From an uncultured Oscillospiraceae bacterium (GTDB taxonomy: Bacteria > Bacillota > Clostridia > Oscillospirales > Oscillospiraceae): a stretch of DNA of 64,000 nucleotides. The position numbers were made by a program, and so were the translations under genes. The notes beneath the pieces were generated by a model, which saw only the letters and a list, made by a program, of their open reading frames with translations, ran no database searches and was not told the origin of the DNA. Each line of letters starts with the position of its first letter. Position 1 is the stretch's first letter. Below are positions 17,301-32,689 of the stretch, piece by piece. The DNA lies in assembly GCA_910579775.1 (NCBI GenBank), contig CAJTUE010000003.1, positions 79,653 through 143,652 on the forward strand, in the 5' to 3' direction.

Positions 17301-20300
17301 CTGCCGCACATAATGCGCAGTCAGGGTCACGTCGGCGGTCATGCTGCCGATGGTCCAGGTGGTGGCGTTGCCCGTTCCCCCCTCCGGGGTGGTCACGTCG
17401 CCCGCACTGGCGGTCCAGAAGGAGTTGTTCGTTCCGTCATTGGCGACGGAACGCTTGCGGTAGCCCGTTGCTACTGTGGCGGCGGCGTTTACCGTCGGGG
17501 CAGCAGTGGTCACCGCCGCGCCGTTGGGTACGATCGCCAAGTTGCCCGTACCCGCGGCGTTCAGGCCCACGTTGCTGGTACCGCCCGCGGCGGGATCACG
17601 CGCGGTGGTCACCTTAAACACCACAACAGGCACTTTTCCGCCTGCGTTGGCGGAGGTGATCTGCTTGTTGCCCGCTCCGACCTTAAAGCCGTTCACCCAG
17701 ATATCATAGGTCTTGGCCGGGTCCAGACCGGACACACTGTAAGTGCCGTCGGCAGTCTGCTTTGTACAATTGATCGTGGGAGCGGCGCCCACCTCGGCCA
17801 GCTGCACCGTGGTCACGTTCGTCAGCGTGCCCGTGGTGGTCAGATGCCGCGTCTCAATAGTGGTGGCGAAGGTATAGGTGGGTGTGACCACCAAGTCGGT
17901 AGCGGCATTGTAACCCGTCTGCAGCGTCACCGTGCCGCCCGAAATGGATACATTCGCGAGCGCCGGGTCGTTGGTCTGTTCCCAGTTCGCCAGGGTGTAC
18001 CCGGTCGAGTGGGTCTCCGCGGCGGTCACGTTGCCCACGGGAGTCACCACACGGGCGCTCGCCGCAGAGCCGGCCCCGGCGGCCCGGACCGTAGCAGTAA
18101 GGCAGCCGGCGGGCTTCGTCTCCGCGACCTTCACGCCGTAGAAGTTCTTGGTCGCGACGTCATCTATCTTGGCCTGCTCGTAGTAAACGCCGCCGTCAAC
18201 GGTGGTAATGCGCCAATAGGGCGCCGTCACGCTGGCCGAAGATACGCCGTTGGCCTCCCAGCGGTCGTTCTTGCGCTCCAAGGTCACGCCACTCACCGAA
18301 GCCGTCCCGGTGGCGGTGTTCACCAGCTGGATCTCTTTGATGTTGGTGTCGCTGGTTCCCTTCGTGGCCCAGTTGCTGGTGTTGACGTTGACCACCAGAT
18401 AGGTGTTGTACTTATCCTTGATAAAGTTTGCCGTATAGGTGACCGTGCTGGTCACGCTGGCCAGCGTCTTGGGGTCGGAGGTATCGTGAGTGGTGGTGTT
18501 GTTCAATTGCCAGTAGCTAAACTTCCAGTTCTCCTGAGGATTCATCGACGTCCACTTCACCGCCGTGCCGTTGATCACCACAATGCTCTGGGAGGTGACC
18601 GGCGTGCCGTTGGCGTAATCCGTCTGGGCGGAACCGCTCAATCCGTCGGTGGTGACCTCCACCTTGGCGTCGCCGTGTCCGGCGGTCGCCGCTGTGACCG
18701 TCCAGTATCTGACCGTGATCTGGGGCACGTTAGCCTGATTCACCGTCACCTTGGCGGTGTGCGTTCCCACATACCCGGTCTTGCTCACCGACAGATCATA
18801 CTTGTTGGCGTCCGTGCCATTATACTCCACATTGCTGAAGGTATAAATGCCGTTTGCAACGCTGGTGGGAGTCTTCGTAGACAAAGTCACTGTGGCGTCG
18901 TTGACCGGGTTGCCGTCCAGCAGCACCTGTACCGTCACCGTGCCCAGCTTCTTCTTGAAGGTCGCCGTCAGCTCAGTCTTCTGGTTCATAGTGACGCTGG
19001 CGCTGGCGGAGGTAGGCGCGGTAATGCCGCCCACATCCACCGTCCATGCGTCCCACTCATAGTCGGTGTTCTTGGGGTCGGCAATGAAGGACACAGAAGT
19101 GCCCTTCTTATAGACGGTCGGTCCGACGGTCTGCGCCGTCGCGGAGGACCCAATGCCCACCTGCGCGGCGGTGGCCTTCGTCTGATCCGCCGTCAGCTTC
19201 AACGTGTAAAGCTCCAGCTTCGCCGGGGCGGCGGTGCTGTCCTGGGTGCCCTGGTCCACCGTAAAGGCGCCGTCCGGCGTGACAACGCTCCACTTCAAAT
19301 TGCTCTCCGTCGCCGAAATGACCCCCGCGTACTTCCACAGATTGACCGTCGTATCATAGGTCGCGTCATGGGTCCCCAGCTTCACGCTGGTGATCTTCCC
19401 GCCCAGGGCGGTCACGCCGCTGTCATCGAGGATCAGGTTCAAATAGGTATCGTACTTCGGCTTGCTGAACTCGGCGATCAACTCCGTCTTCTGGGTCAGC
19501 GTGATCTGGTTCGCCGCGTTCGTCGCAGTAGTAGGCAGAGTGCCCTCACCAAGCTTCCACCTGGTGAAGGAATAGTTGCTGCCGCTGGGCGCGGCGTTGA
19601 TATACACCGTCGTACCCGTCAGATAGGTGCCCGTCTGGTTATCCTGATTCGCCGTGGGCGGGTTGGCGGTAGCGCTCTGGGCGACCTTCGCGCCGCTGTC
19701 CACCGTCTGTTCAGCCGTCACCTTCAGGGTGTAGAAGGGGATATTGACCGTCTGATCCGAGGCGATCGCCGTAATGGTCCGGCTGAACGTCCCCAGGGCG
19801 ACGGTGTAGTTGTTCCCCTGCTCCACAGTAAACTCTTTGGTCGCGTCGGAGGTGGTCGTCCAGTCGGTCTGTCCGGTTACGGTGACCGTCTGGCTCCCGC
19901 CGGGGTGCTGGGTCGTGCCGTTCACCTGGAGGTTGACCGTAATCGTGGCGGTCAGCTTGGCGAAGGACACCGTGTACGTGGTGGTCTCGGTAATGGCCTT
20001 CAGCGTCGTGCTGTTGGTGGTGCTGGCAGCCGTCTGATCCACGCCCGCTGTCTTTGTCCAGGTCGCGGCGTTGGGGTTATAGTAGGTCTGCGCGCTGGCC
20101 GACAGGGTCACCCCCGTCGTGCCGTCCAGCACCACCAACGAGTTGTTGGAGGTGTTGACCTTGGGCGCGGTAGCGCCCGTTCCGGCGTTCAGCGTCACGG
20201 TCCAATAACGCACATCCTGGCTGCCGCCGGTATCTCCCACTGTAATATCGATCCCCGTGTTTGTACCGTTGACATAGATGCGATAACTACCCGGCGTAAC

Positions 20301-23117
20301 GTCGGCAGAATACACGCCCGTCGCGTCCTTGTTCAAGTCCGCGGCTTTCGTCGTTCCCGTGTAGAGGGCCACGCCGGAGCCCACCGTAGCGTCGCTCTTC
20401 GCATTGTCCAAGTAGATGTTGACTACAGCCGGAACGACCCCGGCGCCGAAGGTGGCGACGAGGGGCTTGGAGTTCTCCGTGTCTCCGGCGTTGGAGGCGA
20501 CGGTGACCGCCGAGACCTCCCACGTGCCGTCTGTCAGGGATGGGGTCTGGTCAGTCCCGTTATAGCTTACCTTCTTTGGCTGGTCGTTGCCCCCCGCATT
20601 CAGCGCGGGGGTAAGCTCCGTCCCCACCGGGTAATAGAGCGTGCGGGGGTTGGTCGTGTCCTTATTGACGGGCACATAGCCGTCCTCGGGGTCAACGTCG
20701 GTGGCGGCCGGATTCTCGTCGTGAGGGATCTTCAGGGTGCTCTCCGCATGGGTCGCCCCCTCCACCTTGGGGGTCACAGCGCCCAACTCCACCAGGAAAT
20801 GATAGGTGCCTTTGCCCAGGAGCATACTATACTCGTTCTCTGTCAGGGCGGAGGTATTGATCGTATACGCCGTATGGCCGTTGATGTTCAGGGTATACGT
20901 TCCGCCCGGCAGCGTGACCGACCAGGGGTCGGCCAGTCCGCCCGCCGCCTGGGCCGAGAGGGTGTACGTGCCGCTCTTGGAATAGCCGTCTTCGGCGTCG
21001 CCGCTGTCGTCCTTCGTCGCCGAGGCCAGGAGGGTCGTCCCCCGGTAAAGCTCGACCTTAAACACATGGTCCACGTTCTTGCTGCGGTCGGTGGGCGTGG
21101 CGTTATTGATATCCGTGCCCTTAAATGTGGTAAAGAACTTTACGTTGACCAGATCATAATGCGCCGTCACTGTGGTGTCCGCGGTGGGGTTAAAATAGCC
21201 GTTTTCCGCCTGCGTCACCCCGGCCATAGAGCCCGTCAAGCCGCTTCCCATGCTTGTACCCGACGTAACGGCCGCGCCGCTCCAGTGGTCAAACGCGTTC
21301 AGCTTGTCGCCGGCGTAGACGTTTACCGTGGTTCCCGTCGGATAATAGGAATACTGCACACGGCTGGACTTTACCCGGTCCCAGGTATAGTCGCCCAAAA
21401 CCTGCGGGTTGCCGGAGCCGCCGGAGCCGTCTTCCGCCACCGTAACCGCGTACGCGGGCACGTCGGTGAAGCCCTTCTTTACACCCTCTTGTGTGTTGAT
21501 CCCGTCGACAAACACCTTGCTGCCCAGCTCCACCGTGCGGCCGCCCGACAGTCCGTAATATCCGCCTTCCTCCGCGACCCACTCCAGAATATAATTTGCC
21601 GTGGTTCCAATCTTCAGCTGATGGAAGTCCTCTCCGCTGTCAGCCATGTTGTTCGTCTTCTTCATGCCCTTATATTCGTCTTGGGTCAAAGGGGTCGTTG
21701 TGCCGTCCGCGTTCACCTTCACCAGACGTACCTTCGGCTCCACATCCAGGCTTCCGGCCCAGTGAATGCCGCCGTTTGCCGACGCGCTGACTGGACGCCC
21801 GGCATATTCTCCCGATGCGCACGACGCCTCCGCCGTATAGCTGGACCATATGTCGGAGGGATAGTCATTGCCATCCCAAGTGCCTGCGCTATAAAAAGCC
21901 TCTATCACGCCGATGTCCGACATGGACGAGCCCCAGCCCAGGTTCTCGTCTCCAAACAGGGCCTCATCCACCGGCGTGACCAGCGGAAGATATACTGCAT
22001 TGTCCTCTCCCGGTTGAAGAGTCCCGATGGTATAGATCCCCCATGCATTTGTACCATCTGCAAACCCGTAGGCGTGACCCAGGGTTATGCCGCAATCAGC
22101 GTAATCCGCGAAGCCAATATCCGTTTCGCCGTTGTCAGCGCCCACCGTAATATTGCCCCACTGCGCGCCGGGGTCGTCGGTCACGATATTGCCGCGCTTC
22201 AACTGCACCGTCACGTTGGTCATTGCGGCCTCGCTCCGGTTGGTGACCTTTACATAGGCATATGCGCTTCCCCCCTCCTGGGGAAGCGTAAGGCCCTCGC
22301 TCGTATCCTTCACGTCCACCAACCGTTCTACAAGCTCCACCTTGAGGGGCTGGGTGGTGACTTTGATGCGCATGACGGCATGGCTGAAGCCGGAGGAACC
22401 GCCAATGAAGACAGTAAAAGGCAGACCATCCGTAGCAGGATCAATGGTCGTGGTACTGTCCGGCTCATAGAAGGTCTTGCCCAACGCATATTCGCTCAAC
22501 GCACTCATGTTAAAAGCTACCGAGCTATGCCGACTCTGTGCAGTATCTACAGCTGCCCCGTTAGCTCTAATTTGCCAGTTCCAGTCTACACTTACAGTGC
22601 CACCAAAGGTTGTATTCTTTGACTTTAGCCAGACATAGGGCATTCCCATAAAGTCTGCTAACTGTGTATCAGCATCACTTGCATTGTTGTTAAAATATCC
22701 GGTCCAATCGCCTGCCCCTAGCCCTTCGTAACCTGTCGTAGCTATAGAGTCGCCACCATTCGTAGTGAACCGAGGTACAATGAGAACTGCTACGGGGTCC
22801 TGACCTGTACCCGTACCAGTCGCAATTGTACCGCTCAAGTTAGTCACGTTCGTATTCGCCAGCGTAATGCTGGTAATGGCCGCGCTCAGATCCGCGGTAG
22901 GACCGTCGGGATCGACGGGGTCCACAGGCTTTTCCCCGGTGACGTCGTCGTCATGCCTCCCCTGGGTGTCCGCCACGGGGTCGTCGGGGCTGAGGACAGG
23001 CTGCTCCCCCACCACGTCGTCGGTGATGCGGGCGGCAAAAGCGGTGGTGGGGAGGGTCCCCACCACCATCAGCACCGCCAGAGCCATGGCCAGCCATCTC
23101 TTCAGAAGTCTCTTCAT
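5349..23117 (-). CDS. giant (5,922 aa) secreted, SLH-anchored repeat protein; putative cell-surface fibre/adhesin
   Basis: An uninterrupted 17,769-nt ORF with AGGAGG 8 nt upstream of the ATG at 23115-23117. Signal peptide MKRLLKRWLAMALAVLMVVGTLPTTAFA. The body is rich in T/A/G/V/N/D and looks like beta-type repeats, including many InlB-B-like units (..Y.F..W..). It ends with an acidic spacer, a GGGGG linker, one Flg_new repeat (GYVFRGWSL..TFYAVI) and SLH repeats (YTDVAGHWAESAIAYC..TRQEF etc.). Confidence 0.9.
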   Translation of the reverse strand: MKRLLKRWLAMALAVLMVVGTLPTTAFAARITDDVVGEQPVLSPDDPVADTQGRHDDDVTGEKPVDPVDPDGPTADLSAAITSITLANTNVTNLSGTIATGTGTGQDPVAVLIVPRFTTNGGDSIATTGYEGLGAGDWTGYFNNNASDADTQLADFMGMPYVWLKSKNTTFGGTVSVDWNWQIRANGAAVDTAQSRHSSVAFNMSALSEYALGKTFYEPDSTTTIDPATDGLPFTVFIGGSSGFSHAVMRIKVTTQPLKVELVERLVDVKDTSEGLTLPQEGGSAYAYVKVTNRSEAAMTNVTVQLKRGNIVTDDPGAQWGNITVGADNGETDIGFADYADCGITLGHAYGFADGTNAWGIYTIGTLQPGEDNAVYLPLVTPVDEALFGDENLGWGSSMSDIGVIEAFYSAGTWDGNDYPSDIWSSYTAEASCASGEYAGRPVSASANGGIHWAGSLDVEPKVRLVKVNADGTTTPLTQDEYKGMKKTNNMADSGEDFHQLKIGTTANYILEWVAEEGGYYGLSGGRTVELGSKVFVDGINTQEGVKKGFTDVPAYAVTVAEDGSGGSGNPQVLGDYTWDRVKSSRVQYSYYPTGTTVNVYAGDKLNAFDHWSGAAVTSGTSMGSGLTGSMAGVTQAENGYFNPTADTTVTAHYDLVNVKFFTTFKGTDINNATPTDRSKNVDHVFKVELYRGTTLLASATKDDSGDAEDGYSKSGTYTLSAQAAGGLADPWSVTLPGGTYTLNINGHTAYTINTSALTENEYSMLLGKGTYHFLVELGAVTPKVEGATHAESTLKIPHDENPAATDVDPEDGYVPVNKDTTNPRTLYYPVGTELTPALNAGGNDQPKKVSYNGTDQTPSLTDGTWEVSAVTVASNAGDTENSKPLVATFGAGVVPAVVNIYLDNAKSDATVGSGVALYTGTTKAADLNKDATGVYSADVTPGSYRIYVNGTNTGIDITVGDTGGSQDVRYWTVTLNAGTGATAPKVNTSNNSLVVLDGTTGVTLSASAQTYYNPNAATWTKTAGVDQTAASTTNSTTLKAITETTTYTVSFAKLTATITVNLQVNGTTQHPGGSQTVTVTGQTDWTTTSDATKEFTVEQGNNYTVALGTFSRTITAIASDQTVNIPFYTLKVTAEQTVDSGAKVAQSATANPPTANQDNQTGTYLTGTTVYINAAPSGSNYSFTRWKLGEGTLPTTATNAANQITLTQKTELIAEFSKPKYDTYLNLILDDSGVTALGGKITSVKLGTHDATYDTTVNLWKYAGVISATESNLKWSVVTPDGAFTVDQGTQDSTAAPAKLELYTLKLTADQTKATAAQVGIGSSATAQTVGPTVYKKGTSVSFIADPKNTDYEWDAWTVDVGGITAPTSASASVTMNQKTELTATFKKKLGTVTVQVLLDGNPVNDATVTLSTKTPTSVANGIYTFSNVEYNGTDANKYDLSVSKTGYVGTHTAKVTVNQANVPQITVRYWTVTAATAGHGDAKVEVTTDGLSGSAQTDYANGTPVTSQSIVVINGTAVKWTSMNPQENWKFSYWQLNNTTTHDTSDPKTLASVTSTVTYTANFIKDKYNTYLVVNVNTSNWATKGTSDTNIKEIQLVNTATGTASVSGVTLERKNDRWEANGVSSASVTAPYWRITTVDGGVYYEQAKIDDVATKNFYGVKVAETKPAGCLTATVRAAGAGSAASARVVTPVGNVTAAETHSTGYTLANWEQTNDPALANVSISGGTVTLQTGYNAATDLVVTPTYTFATTIETRHLTTTGTLTNVTTVQLAEVGAAPTINCTKQTADGTYSVSGLDPAKTYDIWVNGFKVGAGNKQITSANAGGKVPVVVFKVTTARDPAAGGTSNVGLNAAGTGNLAIVPNGAAVTTAAPTVNAAATVATGYRKRSVANDGTNNSFWTASAGDVTTPEGGTGNATTWTIGSMTADVTLTAHYVRQYTATVSVDPTTGGTAIFTEKGSTGSSIGTPATSATVDSGDYVKAEFTHNTGNTLNNWTFSNGTLWTTADKQAGTQLTSGTKTAATTVYFFPTADNASLVAKTEAAVYPVEIRVNLDNEAYAGRKVELRQGGAVKYTLTESATEDGLYTAKVLPGNYDVYVDGVTTGTTADSEKNLNFTAAEAESTDVNEQAKRKAEVNYYTIDLVADPAGTAPKQNKVNFAGGTAGTTASKIVLAKVDAYSIGNVVATAFNEADGTHYRFDNWAVTAPGANGGSMGNAKNATTTYTLPAEATLKANTGITPTDKITLTASFVQQFKVTVQLAAGIPSSEFAVHLKETGEANWAATNTIMVDSGDTVTINGAANGGGVESATRVLSEWTVPSTDHGEFDNSSHAAATKPANGKVGYVIQNGIYTPKKDSVLELNAWRMGTLTAGWVFDKGTGTATSPTGAAERRSTWTKNNGQAPTKVTVLNAAGTATFTEVLDAADYVVSGGDGEYYTITAEHLREDVPNGTYTLNLTYVLGPVNHPNNVEKTAQSTNFIVTSNKHKLTETNVQVKDKASDTANPNTATARDGVIYKDHTAAAPDIKHDELIFTWYYANSKPTQTNFNAQTDPAAAAKTAAMAVSGATLIGTTGATGVGAWNEGTNSIATGAVTVTSAMRGKYIYAVVEVDAASETAEGAVITNAIPVDYDAEITVNKDGSHVTADNYKVFLVPSGTAVTQADFAGDAALNAKGIKKADTFNAATGIYSTSGSPLKGATNYVIWVSDAEGSTYYLHATEAGTVTPLNNTGKNVNYFSVNRVDFSQSHTQDKDNRDVGETFDATNTPAINSVTTSNGSTVADGNGVHTGTSVTAKSSTWNQDYTLTWKKSTGNDPVANTTTKQNSTTANATGYANGAVTAKTNIGGELVQNTYLIRGDIKGSGSVATAKLTANGHEFTGKVLYSGAPGINVVEFTVPKSAVTGEINENYVISATMGANTTLVGYSAPSKAAADQVAPLALEQVTKAENGKFAIHIVSTTLSIEVKDTDNEAHKQFATGGSATATVNHSDKEKFADYNQYTRTVVITNQGNTPLTVTLGITKGTNTTVYDGTQTLTGGVLTDGNGVTIGGLERTFDLAVGASKSFVVTIPADLNNDDDVAYHFNFSTVDGRDGVTTKGPDGVYNLNITIDPVTVSKVATNKIKDSDGNVIRYDVKETWVAEDGENPATKPHYNALVTMEDGDYNMATNADIVYEWYVAPWDATVKLNKNTGVPYYTAGGTGNLSLGAGTRGTNNLTYTPTAGEKGMALFLVAKGQRDATSAAMTPDVEAGDPVELVPFDGLITIHENTTLVTDPDEGAKYTVYLWNTQGGDEIDLNDTENLIPTQWSTADNAFMSTKNLWASDPENPDSTKPWTYKVYASIVKDDATLKNTGKTITVGHRTEDVVYYKVDVDDTSVHQNDYEGKLNIPDGSKYFYKTAPTPRPSAAAEGVAGRDVVNTWVQTGTKVTFTYPQWTKDYDLTWSGGVTATDKAAAGNAGAVTHANVTYSSQLAQVKTQLKLNLYPVKANATGTAGWVNYLTMALEDGAVTNTFTSLRTQTDNILGIDDSGLDSATNYRIGVGKSVTFRLPKADGYTTTAHVPGQTESGVASWNYRYGGQDTPGDMDNPGSVKITVNVTGDEHVDTYDVNLIGEGLNMKVSETSLPKDKTDSNTVQSGMGSIPNADTAAVVNGTVNQEIHLNYNYPTGQTVVMEVENTTEGTAIWNVRSTPAAGNTSAITASSFTGGKMEPAAKEEITLTIADGLDAGEYKYSADFSFENKETGGRSAKVTYTLKVVVDPLPFTNVTIKKLDNGTLSIDKYQVTPTGAATATETEPADPVAADDKTALTYGNAEDYQYQWYAADAGSAQPTVTWAAGVPTVSGATAIAGATNKTFDPSTQQGKDIYLVIYANNDSNASQAAISTPITSTFQGVVKISVDGTTLTADPGVISGTTDPVYTVNFVNGSDKIKGTWDNTAQGYVAALEPTKTYTVEVSRAKDDKTNLVTLADVSISNANRTATAPYFTVNAVNFVNKEYQTGTGEDFTGVTITPAFTIGTDHAALPNGTPVLSGQSVAAKAPALSAPNADKAWVQDYTLTWRQKSDDNTAAAVADVNLADSATTGQSATAAIANGAYAYGAVTHKTFIGGRLDQKTYEVVGTVKNETGMTGGHVLKVELAESNNKFTLTTATEAGKLTTGVLSDGDNNGVRGEPGDTAEFTVVKGIYNITSFDGVNTTIQRVTVNTDDTDTDKTRNKETLTPTVQTDDRVFTIYVAGTALKLKVADNEGAAPHNNATSEGSGNVATNYKHAYNEETHYFNATAGTFPLTLSNPGNTDLKLGQPKVYKLAAGSVNASTNMTGVTLGTALALTSGSYSDDNLTISGLDIANTALAVNGTTAGGSLTLKKTAANKDDAVYVVEFPSTYADTNGNTPVGPTVYYVLDLTVEPLPIVSVTTGKNATTGELSLEGYDKNDATNKTGLDHVMVDHDGSAATDAVAANSTDANLKDGDLSFVWAVSDKGDLTAANFEIDTANNKMVAKDGVATVDTTLGKTRQPSAAEEGKFFYLIAYRSAGTANASEFAVSDAVYAQVTISLKTQRYSDKTQVADTSVQIEGTYGTGETASSAKSNSGTLVIPADNSEISFTADEADNATPANAKYYFVGWGPEGDDRIEVNADDRLAMTYAVTKQDTVIGYYDLLPVLTGANGCTIGAATIPVADRTFTYKHNDGSGNVRIEIKPADGSRFLAVTGAEDEDLTTPRVLNATAFEKIAGQPSGGKMGADGDYVLTNSWITANLEGDQDYIITFYDLEKGVENEGYAGYDRSKAYVTSTGDKDVTAVVADDNKGQGHTVQVTNGVSDGTAAETSTASTVNGVVTIHANPAPGYVFTGWKITAGSGRFLEEEGETKAETVFRPTSLTATVEASFAPGDFTAADKKALVIYGNSKFEDGSETSVAATDSEATGTTFTYAVVNTDDLPDWLELNADTGVFSVKSPVNTNVQVEDGTKATYAEAGAVDNEVVLTVRITTNAGKSKDVTYTVNVEPGQLAVTHAAAQDTSVKRGDAYVAANTAGSFIPVDENGVPMYNETVRKHLFAYENVHDQAATQIDTTGHAGDVTNNDSGVYDKGTWTVAPTRFQGTGEPSTYRFTFTYKPDTAEEKWNYAAAVTDMTITIAKPPVGAEFADIIRNFADVENVLKPGEFDTDYSLVEKPEGYDGTFTTAPEAMAYTNETFRKNERITYLDVEPQYTVKLHSLDAAIHGTVFTVDELTGFKLAEGSAYPTFTNGQFASGDGEKTFVLELAPVSGKLWVGEHHAKFTLTGYSNAELAAEGGEPDVTATYELIVMVDPKVITKVDVTVTDPETEPTEVKGTTEDDEPVDNETPDDKGNVPIQDVTVTWKPEPGEPDGKHTEVKVDVTIDPNYVYAEEDDTTPDVKEDITENTDLTVTDHLTPDPEVERDPEDGDHIIHITQKIPYLMHDDVKDGSDPADTTGPKVDDRRTVSVMQGATGLGSYTINLGAYGANVYDVQWTVAQDTITSSAENGIGATLGTLPTGFDLTVDGAKQSVVLDLSAADTSKVGTYSLTLLALGKANADDPEDARTIQSTYVFQITIRSPGGGGGVVETCPCKVLYHVGIHGVTADATIEDVSESSRPSKVPTVTALDGYVFRGWSLTNPATLKKGEKIELVDPKTVTAKGETMTFYAVIIERPYHEHYVIGYPNGNFGPADNIDRASVATIIARAILPDFKEGSNYGNPGGYTDVAGHWAESAIAYCSKYGVFEGYTDGTFKPNQPITRQEFALVIARLDGVMTPGEMDFTDIDEAGSWALGGIYTAYKKGWVNGYTDGSFKPLNNIRRDEAVKVFNAYLNRGVDADGLRKLHEYVHSGVASNVTGNGTDEYMTWPDVPQGHWAYYEIVEAANDHEFVPDFESELGYTLPEEWDKCWIDERWRYHDDLNDGGPNAALLSAGFRVWLH
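9440..15700 (-). repeat. diverged ~640-aa (~1.9 kb) coding super-repeat, 3 full copies plus the start of a 4th, inside the giant ORF
   Basis: Motif ..(F/E/Q/V)W(Y/A).. occurs at W2534, W3172, W3814 and W4466 (codons 15516-18, 13602-04, 11676-78, 9720-22). Motif DY(T/D)LTW occurs at D2800, D3433 and D4047 (14718-20, 12819-21, 10977-79). All are in the ORF frame. Confidence 0.75.
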
Positions 23118-26100
23118 TTCATTGTCCTCCTAGTCAGGAATGCGATAATGGGTCCGGCCATGGTCACGGTCACGGACGGTTTTCGGTCGGTCGGTTCGTC
23201 AGGTATGTCCTCCAACGTCCCTGCTGCCTGCAGGGGGGCCTCCTCCGGCCCGATGAGGGCATCGGGCCCTACAGGCTCCTCCAGCGTCGCCGCGCCAGGA
23301 GCCTCTACGGTCACGGGGTCGCCGCGCCCTACGGGGGTCGCGTCGGGCAGGTCATCCAGGGGGACGTTCTCGTCCTCCGGGGCTTCCTCCAGGCTCAGGA
23401 GGCTGGCGCGGGTGGCCTTTTCCTTCCACACCCACGGCGCGTTCTCCTGGGTCGCCCAAGCCTCACATTCCTCTGTGGTGGGCATGATCCAGCCCGACTC
23501 TACATCGTTGAGATGGAGCAGCACATATTGGAACTCCGCCCACGTCGGCGGGGTCACCCACTTGCGGTTGGTCGCCGCGCCGGTGATAAACTCCTTCTTC
23601 CGGTTGGAGGTGTTCAGGGCGGTCATCACCTGCCACAAGAGGTCCTGCTTATCCCCACTGAACATTTCCGCGGCGGCGATCACGTCGCTGTCGTTCGGTC
23701 CCTTGCGCAGCAGCAGGGTGTCCTTCAGCTTATCGTCCGTCAGGTCATAGACAAACCCCGCGGGGTTGCCCGCGGTCTTCTTGAAGTAACCGATGGCGGA
23801 GGTCATAAAGTCGCCCCACTCTGTGGCGTCTGGCCGCACCGCCTCATACTCGACCTTTCCGCCGGTGACCCACATCCACCCGTAATTCTCCTTCTCCGCC
23901 GCGCATTCCTCTGTGGGCGGCATGATCCAGCCCGACTCCACATCGTTCAGATGGAGCAGCACATATTGGAATTCCTCCCAGGTCGGCTTATTCACCCACC
24001 TGCGGTTGGTCGCCGCGCCGGTGATAAACTCCTTCTTCCGGTTGGAGGTGTTCAGGGCGGTCATCACCTGCCACAAGAGGTCCTGCTTATCCCCACTGAA
24101 CATTTCCGCGGCGGTGATCACGTCGCTGTCGTTCGGTCCCTTGCGCAGCCGCAGCACATCCTTCAGCTTTTCGTCCGTCAGGTCATAGACAAACCCCGCG
24201 GGGTTGCCCGCCGTCTTCTTGAAGTAGCCGATGGCGGAATCCAGGAAAGCGTCCCATTCCGCCGGGTCTGCAAACAGCTCTTCCTTCTTGACCTCTTCCT
24301 CCGGCTTTTTGTCCGCGTTGAACCACCAGTAGGCGTCCACGCCGTCCACAATGACCTCCGCCTTGACCTCCGCGTCCGTCTTATAGACGCCGTTCAAGAG
24401 CAGATACTGGAGCTGGTAATCCGTCAGCCCCGTCAGGCTGTCATAGGTCAGGGTGGGATCGGCCGCAGCCGCCGCGCGCAGCGTGCTCAAAAGGGCGTTC
24501 TTAAACGCCTCAATGCTGGTAAAGGCCGCGCCGTCCGCGTTCACGCGCATAGCCATGCCTGGGTCGGTAACCGAGGGCCGGCGGGTGATAAAGTCCAGAT
24601 CGAGGATCTGGTCCATGGCGTCGGTAGCTGTCTTGCCGTCAAAGCCCACCGCCGCCAGCCAGGCGGCCTGGGCCAGGGTGGCGTGGGTGTCGGCGGTGAA
24701 GCCACTGCCCTGCCACCAGTAGTTTTCCGTGATGCTGGCCGCGGTCTGATAGCTGCTGCCGGGGAAGAGGAGGTGCTGCACCTCCTTCGTCAGGTCCGCG
24801 GCGCTCTGGGAAGCGACGGCGTCCAGATCCTTGTAGGGCAGGCCGCCGCCCGTCTTGCGCACGACCTCCATGATCCGGGCGCGCAGGTCGGCATAGCTCT
24901 CGTCGGTGAAGGGCATGCCGTGGACCTCCGCGCGCAGCTTCAGCCGCTCCAGGGTGGCGGCGTCCAGCTTGCCCAGGGGGTCGATGGCCAGAGGCTGCAT
25001 CGCCCCGTCCACCTCCACGCCGTCCCTGGCCCAGTAGGCGTAGGTGAGCAGGTCCATAATGTCGCCGATGCGCTGGGCCTCGGTGGGGGTGTGGGGCTCG
25101 GGGATCCACCAGTAGTTGCACACCACGTCCGGGTCGGCGGGGTCGGCGATCTTGTCCGCGGGCGGAATGGGCTGGCCCACCAGCTTGTTGGCGTTAATAA
25201 GCAGATATTGCAGCTGGTAAATATCCAGGGCGTACTCTCCCGAGGGCAGCTTCCTCAGGCTGCCGTCCAGGCTCAAAAAGTCGTTCATGTTGTCCACAAA
25301 GCCCAGCACCTTCAGCGCCAGCTCCAGGGAGGTCTTAAACTGCTCCACGCTGGTAAAGCCGCTGCCCGCGGCGGTGCGGCGGAGATAGACCTCGTTATTG
25401 ACGGGGGTGATCCCCTTGGCCAGGAGGGTGTCCAGCTTGGTGGAGTCGGTGTAGTTGCTGGCCCGCCAGGCGTCCGCCGCCTCCATCAGCCGCTCGTAGG
25501 TGAGCCGCGGCTGGCCGCCGTTCTTCCACCAATAATTCTTTTCCTTGAGGATCTCCTCCGCGGTCTTGTAGTCTCCCGCCGGCTGGATCAGAGCGTATTG
25601 GATCTCCTCCCAGGGGATAGTCTCCCACACGTCCATCACCGTCTTGGGGTCGGAGAGGTCATAATGGGCGCTGAGGGTGGTCAGCGCCTTGAGCCAGGCG
25701 GTCTTGAACTCCGCCAGGGTGGTAAAGGCGTTGTCGTCCTCCTCCGACTCCTCCTTGCGGAACCACCCCACATTTTGTGGAGTTTCGTTCCCGGTGGGGG
25801 GCGCGTAGCTGATCAATTCTGTCAAAGCGTTGGGCAGGTTCTCCTCCGTCATGGCGTCCAGGGCGTCGGGCACATCCCCTGAGACCACCAGCATGCCGCC
25901 CTCGATAAAGTCCTTCCAGCCGGTCACCGGGCGTTTGCCGCCGTTTTGCCACCAGTAGGTCTTGCCCGTGGTGGGCCAGGTCCCGGTGATGAGCAGCTCC
26001 TGCACCTGCTCCGCGGTGATCTGCTTCATGGCGTCCTGGTCCAGGCCCGCCGCCGCCAGAATGTCGTATACCTTCTCCAGCGCGTCCAGCATCTCCTGGC

Positions 26101-29100
26101 GGTTCTGGAACTTGCGGCCGTCCTCGTCCTTGCGGAAGGTGGACTGGTAATAGCCGTCCAGGAGGGAGGGGGTCTCGGTGAGCAGCTTATCCAGGGCGTC
26201 CTTGGCCGGGTGCTTATCTCCGGTCTCGTCCTTGGCCTTGTCCATGGCGACAAAGATATCACCCAGGTCAAAGATATCCACAGTGATGTCCTTGGCGCAG
26301 TCGTCCAGGCGGCACCAGGGGAAGCCGGCGCACTGGGCCTCGCTCATGAGGCTGCCGCCGCTGTAAATGCCGTCGCCGCCCCCGGCCTGCATGCACAGCA
26401 GGATGTGGCGCTGGAGTTGATGCCAGCCCAGCTTCACGTCCCCGGTCTTGGGGTCGATAGAGACCCCAGCGTTATACAGGCGTGTGACTAAATCTTGAAA
26501 GTAAGTGGCGGCGCGGGTATAGTTACCCCCGGTAAATTCATCCCCGTTCAGATTTGTCCGCAAATTCAAATCCTTAAGCGTAGCACGGCTCATGTGTTGC
26601 GTTAATTTGTTGCTCTCACCTCTTGCTCCCTTGGTCGCCTCCGCAAGAAGAGTGTTCAACGTAGCATCCAACACAAAGCCATCTGTTCCCTGACGGTCAG
26701 GATAGGCGACCCCGTCCGAATAGAGGAAGTTGTTTTTCAAGTCCAGTTCCTCACCGGCAGAGCGTTGCTTACCTGAAGAAATATTTTCTCCATAGGTATC
26801 TCTCAGCATATAATCCAACTTCCACAACACGCCGCCGGTGGTCATGTCGATGTTCAGAATATCGTCGTTGTTGGAAAGGGTCTTCAGGAAAAACACGTTC
26901 GTATCAGAGGACGGGTCCAAGTCCTGGTCTTCCGAATCAAACGCGTTTACGTCGTAGGTATAGCCTGTCTGTACAGCAGGGTCTCTAGTCCGGTTAACTC
27001 CCTGCCATGGTCCTTCCGCCTGCGATGCACGACGGTATTGATATTGAAAAGAGTAGACTGATGCCTCGGTAGAGGCCGCAATACTATATCTCTCTATGTG
27101 TAAACTTTCGTCCACCACGGTATAGTTATAGTCCTCCAGCAAGCTCTCTCCCGGCTCATAAACCGCCTTGACAATGAGCACGTCCTGGCCGGGCCGCAGC
27201 ATTTTTTCCATGGCGGAAAAGTCCGCAAAACGCAAATACCACGCCGCGTCCTGTTCGGTCACGGCGTAGGTATATGGCTCTGCGGTTCCGGGTATGGTTT
27301 GGGTGGCGGCTGCTGCCGGGTCCAGGTCTCCCAGCTCGCCCACCCCGAAGGTGGTCCACACGTCTTCGGTTTTGATGGAATCCTTATGTAAGATCCAGTT
27401 TTTCTTGGTGAGGTCCTGTGACTCGTCCTCCACGATGGCCCATCCATATACATATGGATAAAGGTAGCCGTCGTATTCCTCCTCCGGGTCAACGGGGGCC
27501 GGCCCGGTCTCCACCGGATCGACGGTGTAGTACCGGGTGGTGAGTCCCGTGCCGGGGTCGGTCACCTCCTTCTGGGTGGTGACGCGGCGGTAGAAGGCGT
27601 AGTCCAGCTTGTCCGTTAACGGGTAGTCCTCTCCCGGCTCGGCGCTGTCCGGGCCGAACTTCATGGCGTCGTCATTGTCGTGACCGACGGTATAGGCGTA
27701 GTCCCCCCGGTAGGTATGCTCCCGCGCCAGGGAGTTTACCCGGTTTTGGTAGTCGGCATATTCGGGCTTGGTCTGCAGGTCGGCCAGATCCTTGGCTCCG
27801 GCCACGATCTCCCCCGTGCGTAACCGGGGATGAATGAAGGTCTTCTCCACGTATTCGTTGACCAGAGGGCGCGCGTCACCCTCGGGGTCCACCACAAGGG
27901 CTCCGATGAGGGTGTCGTCCCAGTCATAGAAGAGGATCTGCGCGCCGCCCACGCCGCCGGTGGGCTTGCGGTAGGTCTCCGCGTTTACCAGGGTGAGCCG
28001 GAGGGTGTTTTCCCTCAGGGTGAGGAGGTTCTGGAAGAAGGAATAATTCCCGTTGGCGTTCACGCCGCCGGGGGCGTCGGGGTCGCCGGGGGTGGCCCAG
28101 GCGGCGTTGTAGTCGGCCACGATGGCGGAGCCCAGGGTGTTGGGCAGCCACAGCGTCGCCTCGTCGTCGTTGTCGGTGGCCTCGTCGTGGATCACAACGT
28201 TCCCCTGGCCGCTGACGTTATAGGAGGTGTTCTTGCCCGCGCCCAGGTAATAATAGAAGCGGGTGGGCGCGTCGGTCACGCCGTCGTTCTCCAGGTTCTG
28301 GGTGTAGAGCACGCTCTGGAACACCGAGCTGCCCGCCACCTGCTTGTCGGCGGCGGTGAGGCTGGCGGCGTCTGTCCAGGCGCCCAGATAGGTCAGGGGG
28401 GTCTTGCCCGAGTTCTGGGGAAGCTCCGCGTCGCCGGGGTCGTTGTCGTCCTTGTTCAGGCCCAGCCAGAAATTAGAGGTGTTCGGCTCGTAGTCCGGCT
28501 GGCCGGGTTCGCCCACGCCCACCTCCAGGTCCGTGAAGCGGTTCATATCATAGGCAAAGCGGACCACCACCACGGGGGTGGAGGTCTCGTAGACTACGTT
28601 GGCGGTGGTGGTGGTGTTGGCCGAGAGGGTGAGAAGGCCCGTGCGGTCGGTGGCCGCCGCGCCGAAGGTCCCCTCCTCGATAAAGGCGGTGGCGTTGTTC
28701 ACCTCGTCGGGCTTGGCGGTGTCCAGCCGGACCCGGACCTTCTTCCCCGAGGTGTTATTCAGCACAGGGTCCAGGTCGGTGAAGATCTTCGCCTGGTCCT
28801 CGCCGTCCTTGTCGATGCCCCGGGGGTAGTGGGTATCGCGGCCGGCGTCGTCGGTGTAGCTGCCCGAGGTGGAGCCGGTCCCGGCGGCGGACCAGCTGTC
28901 GTAAACGGGCTTGCCCGCGCCCCAGGTCACGGCGGTGAGGGCGTCGAGATTCACCGTTACAGCCGCCGCGGCGGACTGGAACGGGTAGTTGCGCACATCA
29001 TATTTGGCCTCCAGGGCCGCCCGGTCCTCGGGCTTGTTGCCGTCCGCCAGCACCTGGGCCAGCTCGGCGGCGTAGACCGCGTCGTCCACAAGGGAGCCGT

Positions 29101-29359
29101 CTGCTTTCAGGGTGACCGTGCGGGCCGTGCGCACGCACAGGGCCAACTCGTAGAAGCCGGTGGGCTTGCCCTTGTCCACCACCACGTTGCCCTGGATGGT
29201 GACCTGGGGCTTGGGGGCCGCGCTGTTGAGCAGGGCGCTGGCGCCCTCCGCCGGAGCTGCCAGGGCCGTACCGCTGAAAAGCGCGCAAGAAAGCGCCGCC
29301 GCCAGGAACAGCGCTCCCAGACGGCCGAGCCGGCCGGACCCTCTCTTTCTTGTCTCCAC
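23114..29359 (-). CDS. 2,081-aa secreted protein: beta-rich N-terminal half plus 7-8 helical YWW repeats, with no recognisable wall anchor
   Basis: GTG start at 29357-29359, 7 nt after GGGGG. Signal peptide ..LGALFLAAALSCALFSGTALAAP. The stop overlaps the giant ORF start (ATGA, 23114-23117). Repeat motifs are listed in the findings. Confidence 0.85.
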   Translation of the reverse strand: METRKRGSGRLGRLGALFLAAALSCALFSGTALAAPAEGASALLNSAAPKPQVTIQGNVVVDKGKPTGFYELALCVRTARTVTLKADGSLVDDAVYAAELAQVLADGNKPEDRAALEAKYDVRNYPFQSAAAAVTVNLDALTAVTWGAGKPVYDSWSAAGTGSTSGSYTDDAGRDTHYPRGIDKDGEDQAKIFTDLDPVLNNTSGKKVRVRLDTAKPDEVNNATAFIEEGTFGAAATDRTGLLTLSANTTTTANVVYETSTPVVVVRFAYDMNRFTDLEVGVGEPGQPDYEPNTSNFWLGLNKDDNDPGDAELPQNSGKTPLTYLGAWTDAASLTAADKQVAGSSVFQSVLYTQNLENDGVTDAPTRFYYYLGAGKNTSYNVSGQGNVVIHDEATDNDDEATLWLPNTLGSAIVADYNAAWATPGDPDAPGGVNANGNYSFFQNLLTLRENTLRLTLVNAETYRKPTGGVGGAQILFYDWDDTLIGALVVDPEGDARPLVNEYVEKTFIHPRLRTGEIVAGAKDLADLQTKPEYADYQNRVNSLAREHTYRGDYAYTVGHDNDDAMKFGPDSAEPGEDYPLTDKLDYAFYRRVTTQKEVTDPGTGLTTRYYTVDPVETGPAPVDPEEEYDGYLYPYVYGWAIVEDESQDLTKKNWILHKDSIKTEDVWTTFGVGELGDLDPAAAATQTIPGTAEPYTYAVTEQDAAWYLRFADFSAMEKMLRPGQDVLIVKAVYEPGESLLEDYNYTVVDESLHIERYSIAASTEASVYSFQYQYRRASQAEGPWQGVNRTRDPAVQTGYTYDVNAFDSEDQDLDPSSDTNVFFLKTLSNNDDILNIDMTTGGVLWKLDYMLRDTYGENISSGKQRSAGEELDLKNNFLYSDGVAYPDRQGTDGFVLDATLNTLLAEATKGARGESNKLTQHMSRATLKDLNLRTNLNGDEFTGGNYTRAATYFQDLVTRLYNAGVSIDPKTGDVKLGWHQLQRHILLCMQAGGGDGIYSGGSLMSEAQCAGFPWCRLDDCAKDITVDIFDLGDIFVAMDKAKDETGDKHPAKDALDKLLTETPSLLDGYYQSTFRKDEDGRKFQNRQEMLDALEKVYDILAAAGLDQDAMKQITAEQVQELLITGTWPTTGKTYWWQNGGKRPVTGWKDFIEGGMLVVSGDVPDALDAMTEENLPNALTELISYAPPTGNETPQNVGWFRKEESEEDDNAFTTLAEFKTAWLKALTTLSAHYDLSDPKTVMDVWETIPWEEIQYALIQPAGDYKTAEEILKEKNYWWKNGGQPRLTYERLMEAADAWRASNYTDSTKLDTLLAKGITPVNNEVYLRRTAAGSGFTSVEQFKTSLELALKVLGFVDNMNDFLSLDGSLRKLPSGEYALDIYQLQYLLINANKLVGQPIPPADKIADPADPDVVCNYWWIPEPHTPTEAQRIGDIMDLLTYAYWARDGVEVDGAMQPLAIDPLGKLDAATLERLKLRAEVHGMPFTDESYADLRARIMEVVRKTGGGLPYKDLDAVASQSAADLTKEVQHLLFPGSSYQTAASITENYWWQGSGFTADTHATLAQAAWLAAVGFDGKTATDAMDQILDLDFITRRPSVTDPGMAMRVNADGAAFTSIEAFKNALLSTLRAAAAADPTLTYDSLTGLTDYQLQYLLLNGVYKTDAEVKAEVIVDGVDAYWWFNADKKPEEEVKKEELFADPAEWDAFLDSAIGYFKKTAGNPAGFVYDLTDEKLKDVLRLRKGPNDSDVITAAEMFSGDKQDLLWQVMTALNTSNRKKEFITGAATNRRWVNKPTWEEFQYVLLHLNDVESGWIMPPTEECAAEKENYGWMWVTGGKVEYEAVRPDATEWGDFMTSAIGYFKKTAGNPAGFVYDLTDDKLKDTLLLRKGPNDSDVIAAAEMFSGDKQDLLWQVMTALNTSNRKKEFITGAATNRKWVTPPTWAEFQYVLLHLNDVESGWIMPTTEECEAWATQENAPWVWKEKATRASLLSLEEAPEDENVPLDDLPDATPVGRGDPVTVEAPGAATLEEPVGPDALIGPEEAPLQAAGTLEDIPDEPTDRKPSVTVTMAGPIIAFLTRRTMK
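23465..24258 (-). repeat. near-identical intragenic tandem duplication (period 438 nt = 146 aa)
   Basis: catgatccagcccgactc... starts at both 23483 and 23921. The encoded ~105-aa cores differ at about 9 positions (SAIGYFKKTAGNPAGFVYDLTD...HLNDVESGWIMP). Confidence 0.85.
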
Positions 29360-29491: not shown

Positions 29492-29520
29492 ATTATACAA
29501 CAAGCCTTTCCAAATTGCAA
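29492..29520 (-). promoter_or_regulatory. candidate sigma-A promoter of the giant-protein operon
   Basis: The minus strand reads TTGCAA (29515-29520) - 17 nt - TATAAT (29492-29497). The leader to the GTG start is about 125 nt. Confidence 0.6.
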
Positions 29521-30229: not shown

Positions 30230-32377
30230 ATGTCAACCGTTATCACCCACAAGCAGTTCCCCAACCGCAAGACCTGGTCCATGGACCTCTGCGGCCGCAA
30301 GCTGTCCATCGAGATGGGCCGGGTGGCCGAGCTGGCCAACGCCAGCGCCATTGTCACCTACGGTGAGACCACCGTTCTGGTGGCCGTCACCGCCGCGCCC
30401 CGTCCCCGGGACGGAGTGGACTTCTTCCCCCTGAGCGTGGACTTTGAAGAGAAGCTGTACGCCGTGGGCCGCATCCCCGGCTCCTTCATGCGCCGGGAGG
30501 GTCAGCCCTCTCTGCCCGCGGTGCTGGCCAGCCGGGTCATCGACCGCTCCATCCGCCCCCTGTTCCCCTACGACTACCGCAACGACGTGGTGGTGACCTG
30601 CACCGTCATGAGCGTAGACCGGGACTGCTCTCCCGAGATGACCGCCATGTTCGGCGTGTCCGCCTGTCTGGCCGTCAGTGACATCCCCTGGGCCGGCCCC
30701 ATCGGCTGCCTTGAGGTGGGCTATGTGGACGGTCAGATCGTCATGAATCCCACCCAGGCCCAGCGTCATGCCTCCCAGCTGGACCTCACCGTCGCCGCCA
30801 GCCAGGAGAAGGTCATCATGATCGAGGCGGGCGCCAAGGAGCTGCCCGACGACATTATGTACGACGCCATCTGCCAGGCCCACGAGGAGGCCAAGAAGCA
30901 GGTGGCGCTCATCAACCAGATGGTCAGCGAGATCGGCAAGGAGAAGATGACCTACGACCACGCCGCCTTTGACCAGGAGTTGTTCGACAAGATCGTGGCC
31001 GACTTTATGGACGAGGCCAAGGCCGCCATGGACACCGACGACAAGAACGTGCGGGAGAGCCGCTGGAACGCCATGATCGAGAAGTGGCACGAGAAGTATC
31101 TGGACGACCATCCCGACATGGACCAGTTCCTGGAGGAGATCACTTACAAGTTCCAGAAGAAGATCGTCAAGGCCTGGCTGCTGGAGGGCCACCGGGTGGA
31201 TGGCCGCGCCAAGAACGAGATCCGGCCTCTGGCCGCCGAGGTAGGCGTCCTGCCCCGGGTCCACGGCTCCGGCCTCTTCACCCGCGGCCAGACCCAGGTG
31301 CTGTCCATCTGCACCCTGAACACCCTGGCCGCCACCCAGAAGCTGGACACCATCTGGGAAGAGGAAGAGAAGCGGTATATGCACCACTACAACTTCCCCT
31401 CCTTCTCCGTGGGCGAAGCCCGGGCCAGCCGCTCCACCAACCGCCGGGAGAAGGGCCACGGCGCCCTGGCTGAGCGGGCGCTGGAGCCGGTCATCCCCAG
31501 CGTGGAGGACTTCCCCTACGCCATCCGCGTGGTCTCCGAGGTGGTCAGCTCCAACGGCTCCACCTCCCAGGGCTCTATCTGCGGCTCCACCCTGGCTCTG
31601 ATGGACGCGGGCGTGCCCATCTCCGCCCCCGTGGCAGGCATTTCCTGCGGCCTCATCCAGGACGACAACGGCGGCTTCACCACCTTTATCGACATCCAGG
31701 GCGTGGAGGATTTCCACGGTGAGATGGACTTTAAGGTGGCAGGCACCAAGAAGGGCATCACCGCCATCCAGATGGACATCAAGAACGACGGCCTCAGCCA
31801 CGCCATCATCAAGGAGGCGCTGGAGATCACCCGGGACGCCCGCTTCGCCATTCTGGATGAGATCATGCTCCCCTGCATTGCGGAGCCTCGCCCCGAGGTG
31901 AGCCGCTACGCCCCCAAGATGCTCACCATGAAGATCGACGTGGACAAGATCCGCGAGGTCATTGGCAAGGGCGGCAGCGTCATCCAGAAGATCACCGCCG
32001 AGTCCGGCGCTCAGGTAGACATCGATGAGGACGGCACCATTCACATCGCTTCCCCCGATGCGGAGAAGTGCGACGTGGCCAAGAAGATGATCGAGACCAT
32101 CGTCTTTGTCCCCGAGGTGGGCCAGCTCTACTACGGCAAGGTGGTCCGCATCCTTCAGTTCGGCGCGTTTGTGGAGCTTGCGCCCGGTAAGGACGGCATG
32201 GTCCACATCTCTAAGCTGGCAAACCACCGTGTGGAGAAGGTGGAGGACGTGGTGAACATCGGAGACATGATCTGGGTCAAGGTCACCGACATCGACGAGA
32301 AGGGCCGGGTGAACCTCTCCTATAAGGACGCCCTCAAGGAGCTGGAGAACCGCGGCGCGAAGGCCCCGGAAGTGTGA
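30230..32377 (+). CDS. pnp: polyribonucleotide nucleotidyltransferase (PNPase)
   Basis: ATG at 30230 after AAAGGAG, 715 aa. Two RNase PH-like domains followed by KH and S1 regions (..GKGGSVIQKI.., ..YYGKVVRILQFGAFVEL..). Confidence 0.95.
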   Translation: MSTVITHKQFPNRKTWSMDLCGRKLSIEMGRVAELANASAIVTYGETTVLVAVTAAPRPRDGVDFFPLSVDFEEKLYAVGRIPGSFMRREGQPSLPAVLASRVIDRSIRPLFPYDYRNDVVVTCTVMSVDRDCSPEMTAMFGVSACLAVSDIPWAGPIGCLEVGYVDGQIVMNPTQAQRHASQLDLTVAASQEKVIMIEAGAKELPDDIMYDAICQAHEEAKKQVALINQMVSEIGKEKMTYDHAAFDQELFDKIVADFMDEAKAAMDTDDKNVRESRWNAMIEKWHEKYLDDHPDMDQFLEEITYKFQKKIVKAWLLEGHRVDGRAKNEIRPLAAEVGVLPRVHGSGLFTRGQTQVLSICTLNTLAATQKLDTIWEEEEKRYMHHYNFPSFSVGEARASRSTNRREKGHGALAERALEPVIPSVEDFPYAIRVVSEVVSSNGSTSQGSICGSTLALMDAGVPISAPVAGISCGLIQDDNGGFTTFIDIQGVEDFHGEMDFKVAGTKKGITAIQMDIKNDGLSHAIIKEALEITRDARFAILDEIMLPCIAEPRPEVSRYAPKMLTMKIDVDKIREVIGKGGSVIQKITAESGAQVDIDEDGTIHIASPDAEKCDVAKKMIETIVFVPEVGQLYYGKVVRILQFGAFVELAPGKDGMVHISKLANHRVEKVEDVVNIGDMIWVKVTDIDEKGRVNLSYKDALKELENRGAKAPEV

Positions 32378-32662
32378 GCGTAGACACATAGCCGTGGATG
32401 GACCGGAGCGAGGGCCGAATTGGTAAGGCGGCAAAGCCGCCGCGATTTGGCCCGAGACGTAGGGAAGCCACGGCGTGATGTGTCCAACGCGAACATGACA
32501 AGGAAGTGTGAGCGTAGACACATAGCCGTGGATGGACCGGAGCGAGGGCCGAATTGGTAAGGCGGCAAAGCCGCCGCGATTTGGCCCGAGACGTAGGGAA
32601 GCCACGGCGTGATGTGTCCAACGCGAACATGACAAGGAAGTGTGAGCGTAGACACATAGCCT
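32372..32662 (+). repeat. 134-nt long-hairpin element, 2 tandem copies plus a 23-nt partial third, in the pnp 3' UTR
   Basis: gtgtgagcgtagacacatagcc starts at 32372, 32506 and 32640, giving an exact period of 134. The first copy contains the pnp stop codon. Confidence 0.9.
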
Positions 32663-32689
32663 CTCGCCCACCCCCTGCACACACAGATC

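Follow-up and report, generated by a model that had tools for sequence, protein, structure and literature searches.

A previously undescribed all-α repeat with a Y-W-W signature in a large Oscillospiraceae protein and in prophage tail-fiber-region proteins

What kind of domain is repeated through the C-terminal part of a 2,081-amino-acid (aa) protein from an uncultured Oscillospiraceae bacterium, and what might such an array be for? The protein is encoded in a 64,000-nucleotide stretch of DNA (positions 79,653 to 143,652 of contig CAJTUE010000003.1, assembly GCA_910579775.1), which we call the window. Its gene, defined by its open reading frame and translation, lies at 23114..29359 on the minus strand and starts with GTG. 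A preliminary description of this DNA had pointed out a helical repeat of unfamiliar type with a Y-W-W signature, which we refer to as the YWW repeat. The window protein is identical to the representative of a protein cluster (P0001), and its 90%-identity cluster-mate MFG6373719.1 carries the name "MAG: hypothetical protein [Oscillospiraceae bacterium]", MAG standing for metagenome-assembled genome.

The motifs in question are found at exactly the codons that the preliminary description had given. The YWW or W-x-W motifs are at Tyr1135 (25949-25957), 1276 (25526-25534), 1416 (25106-25114), 1547 (24713-24721), 1677 (24323-24331), 1826 and 1976, with successive spacings of 141, 140, 131, 130, 149 and 150 aa. 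The second element reported there, a helix motif of the form (W/Y)xx(L/F/I)Q(Y)xLL upstream of each YWW, could be located in every one of eight units (Q983, 1120, 1254, 1384, 1528, 1651, 1798 and 1944). Comparing the whole protein with itself by BLAST gave the identity match only, and the units were hence compared separately. BLASTP of unit against unit reached E-values of 2e-9 among units 1 to 5, and units 6 and 7 share 79% of their amino acids and 83% of their DNA; mutual amino acid identity among the remaining units is 12-30%. An independent profile, built only from units of orthologues no more than 40% identical to the window protein, detected eight units at 14-68 bits, and the best of 200 composition-preserving shuffles of the C-terminal half scored 3.2 bits with the same profile. 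Given these scores and the BLASTP matches between units, we therefore conclude that the periodicity is real, with the statistical support that the earlier proposal depended on. Tandem Repeats Finder reported no tandem repeat at the DNA level, because the units are too diverged.

The array comprises residues 866-1985 (23405-26764) and thus extends somewhat further than the 23390-26360 first proposed. The copy number had been put at seven to eight; it is eight, the first unit being a cryptic one that had been overlooked. This unit 0 (residues 866-1015; 26315..26764, minus strand, as for all units) is a Cys-containing variant that keeps the WHQLQRHIL helix and has FPWC in place of YWW. Units 1 (residues 1009-1146; 25922..26335) and 2 (residues 1144-1288; 25496..25930) end in KTYWWQNGG and KNYWWKNGG, respectively, and unit 3 (residues 1282-1426; 25082..25516) ends in CNYWWIPEP. 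Unit 4 (residues 1429-1559; 24683..25075; end ENYWWQGSG) is the weakest, at 14 bits with the independent profile, and is followed by unit 5 (residues 1550-1687; 24299..24712; end DAYWWFNAD). Unit 6 (residues 1699-1835; 23855..24265), which represents a C-terminal subtype ending in NYGWMWVTGG, is a recent duplicate of unit 7 (residues 1845-1985; 23405..23827), the last one, ending in NAPWVWKEK. A Cys/His cluster stands at the junction of units 0 and 1 (residues 990-1021; 26297-26392, minus strand), where a YWW would be expected. Its family consensus is C..H...LDCA.L.YHQLQ ... WCHLH..CA, with Cys1016, Cys1021 and H980 invariant across the family, and it could form a disulfide or a metal site.

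An iterated profile gathered 595 units from 93 related proteins, in which the information content is concentrated in few positions. W98, Q102 (94%), Y103 and L105 are on one helix; then come Y125-W126-W127 (W127, 93%) and, four residues on, a glycine (90%). The near-invariant signature over about 600 units is thus W-x3-Q-Y on the fourth helix together with Y-W-W-x3-G (consensus YWWxxGG), the latter in the segment running on to the following bundle. The distance from Q to W has a median of 25 residues (range 14-45), and that from W to G is 4 in 63 of 103 measurable junctions and 14 in 29 more. In the last unit of the array, in host and phage proteins alike, the YWW..GG ending is swapped for W-x-(P)-x-W. 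This motif swap at array ends and the fairly fixed spacing between YWW and G fit a junction element.

An AlphaFold2 model of residues 860-2000, computed with 69 homologues, is almost purely helical, with a mean predicted local distance difference test (pLDDT) score of 82 and a predicted template modeling (pTM) score of 0.41, as had been anticipated for this part of the protein. The model is a string of small bundles of four to five helices, and its DSSP pattern recurs in every unit. Just behind YWW-GG comes a helix, then one or two short ones and a small hairpin at "LR..G..F"; the long amphipathic helix that follows (F69, L73, A76, V77) precedes the Q-helix, after which another short helix leads to the YWW turn. 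On helix 4, W98, L101/Q102 and L105/L106 share one face with hydrophobic positions (i, i+3/4, i+7/8), a pattern which suggests that the invariant Gln, Q102, is buried.

No known family accounts for this unit in the libraries that we searched. Neither Pfam nor NCBIfam had a significant match to the whole protein (best Pfam match Cofac_haem_bdg, E 0.0016, 18.9 bits against a cut-off of 27.7 bits), and the eight single units matched Pfam at E 0.027 at best, with no family common to more than two of them. PHROGs gave no match to the window protein. Among PDB sequences, the 8-unit profile had calmodulin as its sole, nonsignificant match (E 0.09), and a 62-sequence profile found nothing at E up to 10. 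Foldseek, queried with the whole 1,141-residue array model against PDB and BFVD, produced no match with an E-value below 1; its 27 PDB matches all had E-values of at least 2. We rejected two candidates from these searches. Calmodulin, or an EF-hand in general, was lost with the 62-unit profile, and the protein has no DxDxDG-type Ca-loop pattern; topoisomerase V, which contains helix-hairpin-helix (HhH) repeats and ranks second in the Foldseek list, is nonsignificant at E 2.2. The FIVAR and GA families (PF07554 and PF01468) gave no Pfam match, and neither 2DGJ nor 6GV5 is among the 27 Foldseek PDB matches. The repeat, unrecognized at the outset, matches nothing significantly by any of these routes and is a previously undescribed, all-α domain family of 130-150 aa without known relative in these libraries.

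The family has a narrow distribution. When the 8-unit profile was run with HMMER exhaustively against 1.84 billion representative proteins, it yielded 83 matches at E up to 1e-3, almost all of them 1,500-2,300 aa long, of the same architecture and from uncultured Oscillospiraceae. A word-indexed search found 75 homologue clusters (1,600-2,200 aa), none of which has a Pfam domain of any kind, anchors included; repeated with the 62-unit profile it returned one protein, a number that reflects the limits of the index and is not evidence. Across 185,579 species-representative genomes there are 12 loci, all in uncultured MAGs, labeled Oscillospiraceae in nine cases and Clostridia, Clostridiales and Lachnospiraceae in one each, and several come from mouse or rabbit gut. 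Mapped in this way, as the preliminary description had proposed, the YWW protein proves largely confined to uncultured Oscillospiraceae.

Copy number varies within the family. Full-length proteins have 5-9 units, and one locus has 11. Two relatives of 1,935 aa, P0002 (99% identical) and P0089, are without exactly one period of 146 aa in the region of units 6 and 7 (residues 1796-1941), so that repeat number differs between close strains, a hallmark of the periscope proteins discussed below. Only units 6 and 7 are similar enough in their DNA for such recombination; the other units are too diverged.

The array is preceded by a better conserved region. Residues 1-34 (...SGTALA/AP; 29258..29359, minus strand) read as a probable signal peptide, and an N-terminus of this type is common to all homologues of the protein, which is probably secreted. 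Next comes a head of residues 35-865 (26765..29257, minus strand) with InlB-B-repeat-like motifs (ILFYDWDD, YGWA). Across the family, identity in the N-terminal ~830 residues is 28-72% (37-55% in most of the distant members), compared with about 20% for the array. The AlphaFold2 model of the head (pLDDT 82) is β-rich, as had been expected of this half of the protein. The preliminary description had also noted weak cohesin-like features there. They remain weak: 29 of the 31 top Foldseek matches of the head model in PDB are cohesin chains, mostly of type II, but the scores are low (E 0.02-0.3, probability 0.16-0.84, target TM 0.20-0.38), and Pfam Cohesin has no match in the 2,081-aa protein. The model is thus suggestive of a cohesin-like β-sandwich somewhere in the head. 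No dockerin-type Ca-loop was found in the 2,081-aa protein or in the 5,922-aa and 379-aa proteins encoded downstream, and a six-frame search of the window with a dockerin pattern gave only a chance match inside pnp.

Beyond the array, the protein ends in an acidic, proline-rich and poorly conserved tail (residues 1986-2081; 23117..23404, minus strand), and the C-terminal tails of the homologues are likewise variable. Neither the tail nor the rest of the protein contains an LPXTG motif, an SLH domain or any other recognized anchor. SLH domains (PF00395) are instead present in three neighboring proteins of 5,922, 379 and 732 aa.

The largest of these is encoded directly downstream. The product of this giant gene (5349..23117, minus strand) is rich in Thr and combines Flg_new_2 repeats with SLH domains at its C-terminus; the gene overlaps the YWW gene by 4 nucleotides (ATGA), its start codon running into the YWW stop codon. 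The YWW gene closes with ACT AGG AGG ACA ATG AAA TGA (23114-23135, minus strand), in which the giant gene has both its Shine-Dalgarno sequence and its start codon, and the AGGAGG encodes the "RR" of the C-terminal ...TRRTMK. The "RR(T)" tail of the closer homologues is therefore probably conserved as nucleotides, for its ribosome-binding site, and not as a protein signal. In every one of the 11 related loci that extend far enough, a giant gene comes directly after the YWW gene. Homology to the window giant is detectable in eight of these downstream open frames, and two complete ones encode 7,013 and 8,294 aa. The giant neighbor itself contains neither YWW units nor similarity to the 2,081-aa protein. 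The co-occurrence with giant SLH proteins that had been raised as a question therefore holds as a pairing of genes, with SLH domains in the giant of the window, and does not extend to SLH domains in the YWW protein.

Several short proteins among the 83 HMMER matches are not fragments of the bacterial family, and their setting is that of prophages. The preliminary description had no hint of this occurrence. Four of them, P0108 (856 aa, 7 units), P0121 (358 aa, 3 units), P0159 and P0162, have a common N-terminus, MELKHKTLEELF..., and no signal peptide, and the units make up nearly the entire polypeptide after a 50-aa N-terminus. P0134 begins with a classical tail-fiber motif (KGADGKSAYEAAVAAGYTGT) and continues with three units. 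In P0156 a single unit precedes tail-fiber repeats; the protein has matches to tail-fiber PHROGs and a weak CBM_5_12 match beside the unit, and its gene is followed by genes for a β-helix (tailspike-like) protein and XkdX. A profile made from the bacterial family only recognizes P0108 at E 2.6e-70 and P0121 at E 3.8e-38. The prophage or phage-like loci, with 1-7 units, are L015:10001-12571, L016:10001-11077 and L018:10001-11962. The prophage gene order is minor capsid, Gp15, tape measure, 704-aa tail protein, collagen-like tail fiber, YWW protein, Amidase_2 endolysin and holin. The flanking SmpB and fructose-bisphosphatase genes fall into 90%-identity clusters with Pseudoflavonifractor sp., a genus in the Oscillospiraceae, and these housekeeping genes have no counterpart in the window or the related loci. 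Neither P0134 nor P0108 had a relative in scans of IMG/VR. Within one bacterial family, a surface protein and the fiber-region proteins of phages of Pseudoflavonifractor type thus have the module in common. The window gene itself has no phage genes nearby; it is chromosomal and lies outside any phage structural-lysis module.

What, then, might the array do? We tentatively favor, with not quite even confidence, a new all-α module for building fibers: a length-variable shaft of coupled bundles that bears a conserved head beside a giant SLH partner and that has been reused as a cassette in phage fibers. The cluster of aromatic residues, Gln and Gly would act as a structural clasp that shuts each bundle and links it to its successor, and the coupled bundles would then make an extended extracellular shaft of the beads-on-a-string kind. 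In-register recombination would change the number of units and hence the length of the shaft. In the bacterial protein the shaft would carry the conserved β-rich head with its putative cohesin-like domain; the YWW gene and the giant SLH gene would share one transcript and probably be translationally coupled, and their products presumably belong to one surface structure. The shaft cassette, including its final W-x-(P)-x-W unit, would have been swapped between host surface proteins and phage fibers. The shaft may also be adhesive. A conserved head, an array of about 20% identity and a varying number of units together match the pattern of a head on a variable stalk (PMC9704523, PMC7587433).

Several points weigh against this interpretation. 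Compared with the helices, the YWW stretches show a dip in pLDDT, and because of this dip and a pTM of only 0.41 the model does not support a rigid rod; the bundles may be flexibly linked. Burial of Q and W and the contact between bundles are predictions from the helix-face pattern and the junction motif, and a near-invariant Gln with three to four aromatics also resembles a sugar-binding site. The units, with the exception of 6 and 7, have diverged too far to behave as a "periscope" tract of the classical type. A stalk would also have to be attached somewhere, and neither end of the array revealed an attachment point. Finally, all-α modules are unusual in phage fibers.

In the strongest alternative, the units bind a ligand. 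If W, Q, Y and YWW formed an exposed site for a conserved component of the Oscillospiraceae envelope (a wall polysaccharide, for instance, or some other glycan), the host array would be a multivalent noncovalent anchor and the phage array would serve adsorption, on the model of choline-binding, GW, WxL and CWB2 repeats. This would explain why conservation is concentrated in aromatics and Gln in a unit that is otherwise below 20% identical, and how proteins manage in a family where no member has another anchor. The array is C-terminal, as noncovalent wall-binding repeats usually are, and in prophages the units form nearly the whole of a polypeptide encoded at the tail-fiber or receptor-binding position, with the CBM_5_12 match of P0156 adjoining its unit. 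Exchange of wall-binding modules between phages and their hosts is also well known. The conserved helix positions, however, are on the hydrophobic side of the helix, a linker role is suggested by the dropping of GG in the last unit of an array, and no likeness to a known carbohydrate- or wall-binding fold turned up in the Pfam, PDB and Foldseek searches. The acidity of the arrays (isoelectric point about 4.5) could be added to these objections, but it is a weak point: isoelectric points cannot separate an anchor from a stalk here, because everything at this locus is acidic, the SLH region included. On balance we consider ligand binding possible but unlikely.

A broader version of this idea seems to us improbable, if worth stating for its consequences. 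Here the array would be a recognition device for the cell's own surface that docks the head protein on the envelope, with either the giant SLH protein or a wall glycan as the docking site, and phages would have captured it as a distal part of their tail fibers that recognizes the same structure. If so, it would be the first all-α receptor-binding module of a Gram-positive phage and would directly indicate a phage receptor in uncultured gut commensals.

Binding to the giant protein specifically is a narrower and more doubtful proposition. By binding the giant SLH protein, the units would keep the 2,081-aa protein, which has no anchor of its own, attached to the cell, and phages would have copied the array to use the giant as their receptor. 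A strict gene pair with a 4-nucleotide overlap, an anchorless YWW protein next to a giant with SLH domains in the window, and arrays in prophage tail-fiber-region proteins of the same bacterial family are all what one would expect of such an arrangement. Giants of 5,922, 7,013 and 8,294 aa nonetheless go with 8, 6 and 9 units, respectively, so that unit number does not scale with giant length. The motif is also invariant although the giants of different hosts share 25-34% identity, and an interface with so fast-evolving a partner should not be invariant; the better-conserved cohesin-like head is the more obvious docking element. Least likely of all, and in our view very improbable, is that the unit derives by strong divergence from a known helical family (FIVAR/GA of Ebh and Embp, (HhH)2 or EF-hand-like pairs), a view for which the likeness in unit size (125-170 aa) and rod-of-bundles logic to the F and FG repeats of Embp (PMC7587433) and the nonsignificant topoisomerase V and calmodulin matches could be cited, against the failure of the whole protein and of single units to reach any Pfam cut-off, the empty 62-sequence search of PDB, the absence of 2DGJ and 6GV5 from the whole-array Foldseek matches and the lack of an EF-hand loop pattern.

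The wider neighborhood of the YWW gene includes rpsO-pnp, prfB, RNase Y, an ABC transporter and SLH proteins. The 379-aa SLH protein (4202..5341, minus strand) is a stand-alone paralogue of the C-terminal anchor module of the giant (5349-6800, minus strand; a B-repeat-like segment plus SLH), to which it is 60% identical over 364 aa. A 732-aa 5'-nucleotidase/metallophosphatase with C-terminal SLH domains (920-3118, minus strand) lies in the same neighborhood, which makes the region a cluster of SLH-anchored surface proteins, and a histidine kinase fragment (3284-4126) is found between the genes for the 732-aa and 379-aa SLH proteins. On the other side, rpsO (S15; 29662-30060, plus strand) and pnp (PNPase; 30065-32377, plus strand) are divergent from the YWW gene. 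A candidate sigma-70-like promoter, TTGCAA-17-TATAAT (29492..29520, minus strand), is a consensus match about 130 nucleotides upstream of the YWW start codon, and an Rfam scan of the window gave no match.

In the two relatives whose gene tables we read, L001 and L002, the upstream neighbor on the same strand is prfB. The presence of rpsO and pnp in this place implies that the module has undergone a rearrangement at its upstream edge in the window genome. Other loci have further genes there. The distant relatives L012 (3-8699) and L013 (3-8747) have another very long frame, of at least 2,900 aa and open at the start of the locus, directly upstream of the YWW gene; L002, L007 and L008 have a gene of 645-750 aa in that position instead, and the L002 copy shows a faint Flg_new match. 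The window also contains long open frames antisense to the giant gene, the YWW gene and pnp (9801-22622, plus strand, 4,273 aa; 23513-25882, plus strand, 789 aa; 30233-33169, minus strand, 978 aa). We dismissed the last of these, 30233..33169, as a neighboring gene, as it is antisense to a clear pnp, has no Pfam match and has a low-complexity translation. Such very long antisense frames look like by-products of 61% G+C and skewed codon usage.

With about 600 units in about 80 protein clusters, the new domain family is suited to a Pfam entry of its own, and its unit is a good target for structure determination. The conserved two-gene surface module, a YWW gene with a giant gene behind it (the window giant being SLH-anchored), is the mark of a clade of uncultured Oscillospiraceae from mouse, rabbit and other guts. 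A module common to a putative bacterial surface fiber and to prophage fiber-region proteins would offer a testable handle on both phage-host recognition and surface architecture.

How does this system compare with those already known? Some modules, Ig-like or wall-binding domains among them, are common to phage fiber proteins and the surface proteins of hosts, and homologous YWW arrays are likewise encoded in a late tail operon or fused to tail-fiber motifs. The window gene differs from these phage genes in being chromosomal and in encoding a signal peptide and a large head, both absent from the phage proteins. To our knowledge, the modules described so far as shared between phage and host are β-rich, not helical. 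Cohesin systems are common in Oscillospiraceae, and the head model resembles, if weakly, the cohesin modules of cellulosome and amylosome scaffoldins, which are paired with SLH-anchored proteins as the YWW gene is. It departs from them in the weakness of its matches, with no Pfam Cohesin hit, and in the lack of a dockerin-like motif in its partners or in the window.

The periscope proteins (PMC9704523) similarly combine a head with a repeat array, and near-identical strains differ by exactly one period. Their tracts consist of highly identical repeats and have a covalent or otherwise known wall anchor, whereas in the YWW protein only units 6 and 7 are alike, the others are below 30% in amino acid identity, and no anchor was found. 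The closest parallel is with the F and FG repeats of the giant staphylococcal proteins Embp and Ebh (FIVAR and FIVAR-GA; 6GV5, 2DGJ; PMC7587433), which are also tandem all-α units of 125-170 aa in a large Gram-positive surface protein. In both systems each unit is a small helical bundle, and identity between units is low while secondary structure is kept. The YWW unit differs in having no Pfam FIVAR/GA or Foldseek match, and in its own signature, W-x3-Q-Y ... Y-W-W-x2-G-G, with a short hairpin; its array is C-terminal without a downstream wall anchor, and its host is an anaerobic gut member of the Oscillospiraceae. The Embp and Ebh repeats form an elongated fiber that is also adhesive (PMC7587433). 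The domain family described here is new; the type of architecture is a familiar one.

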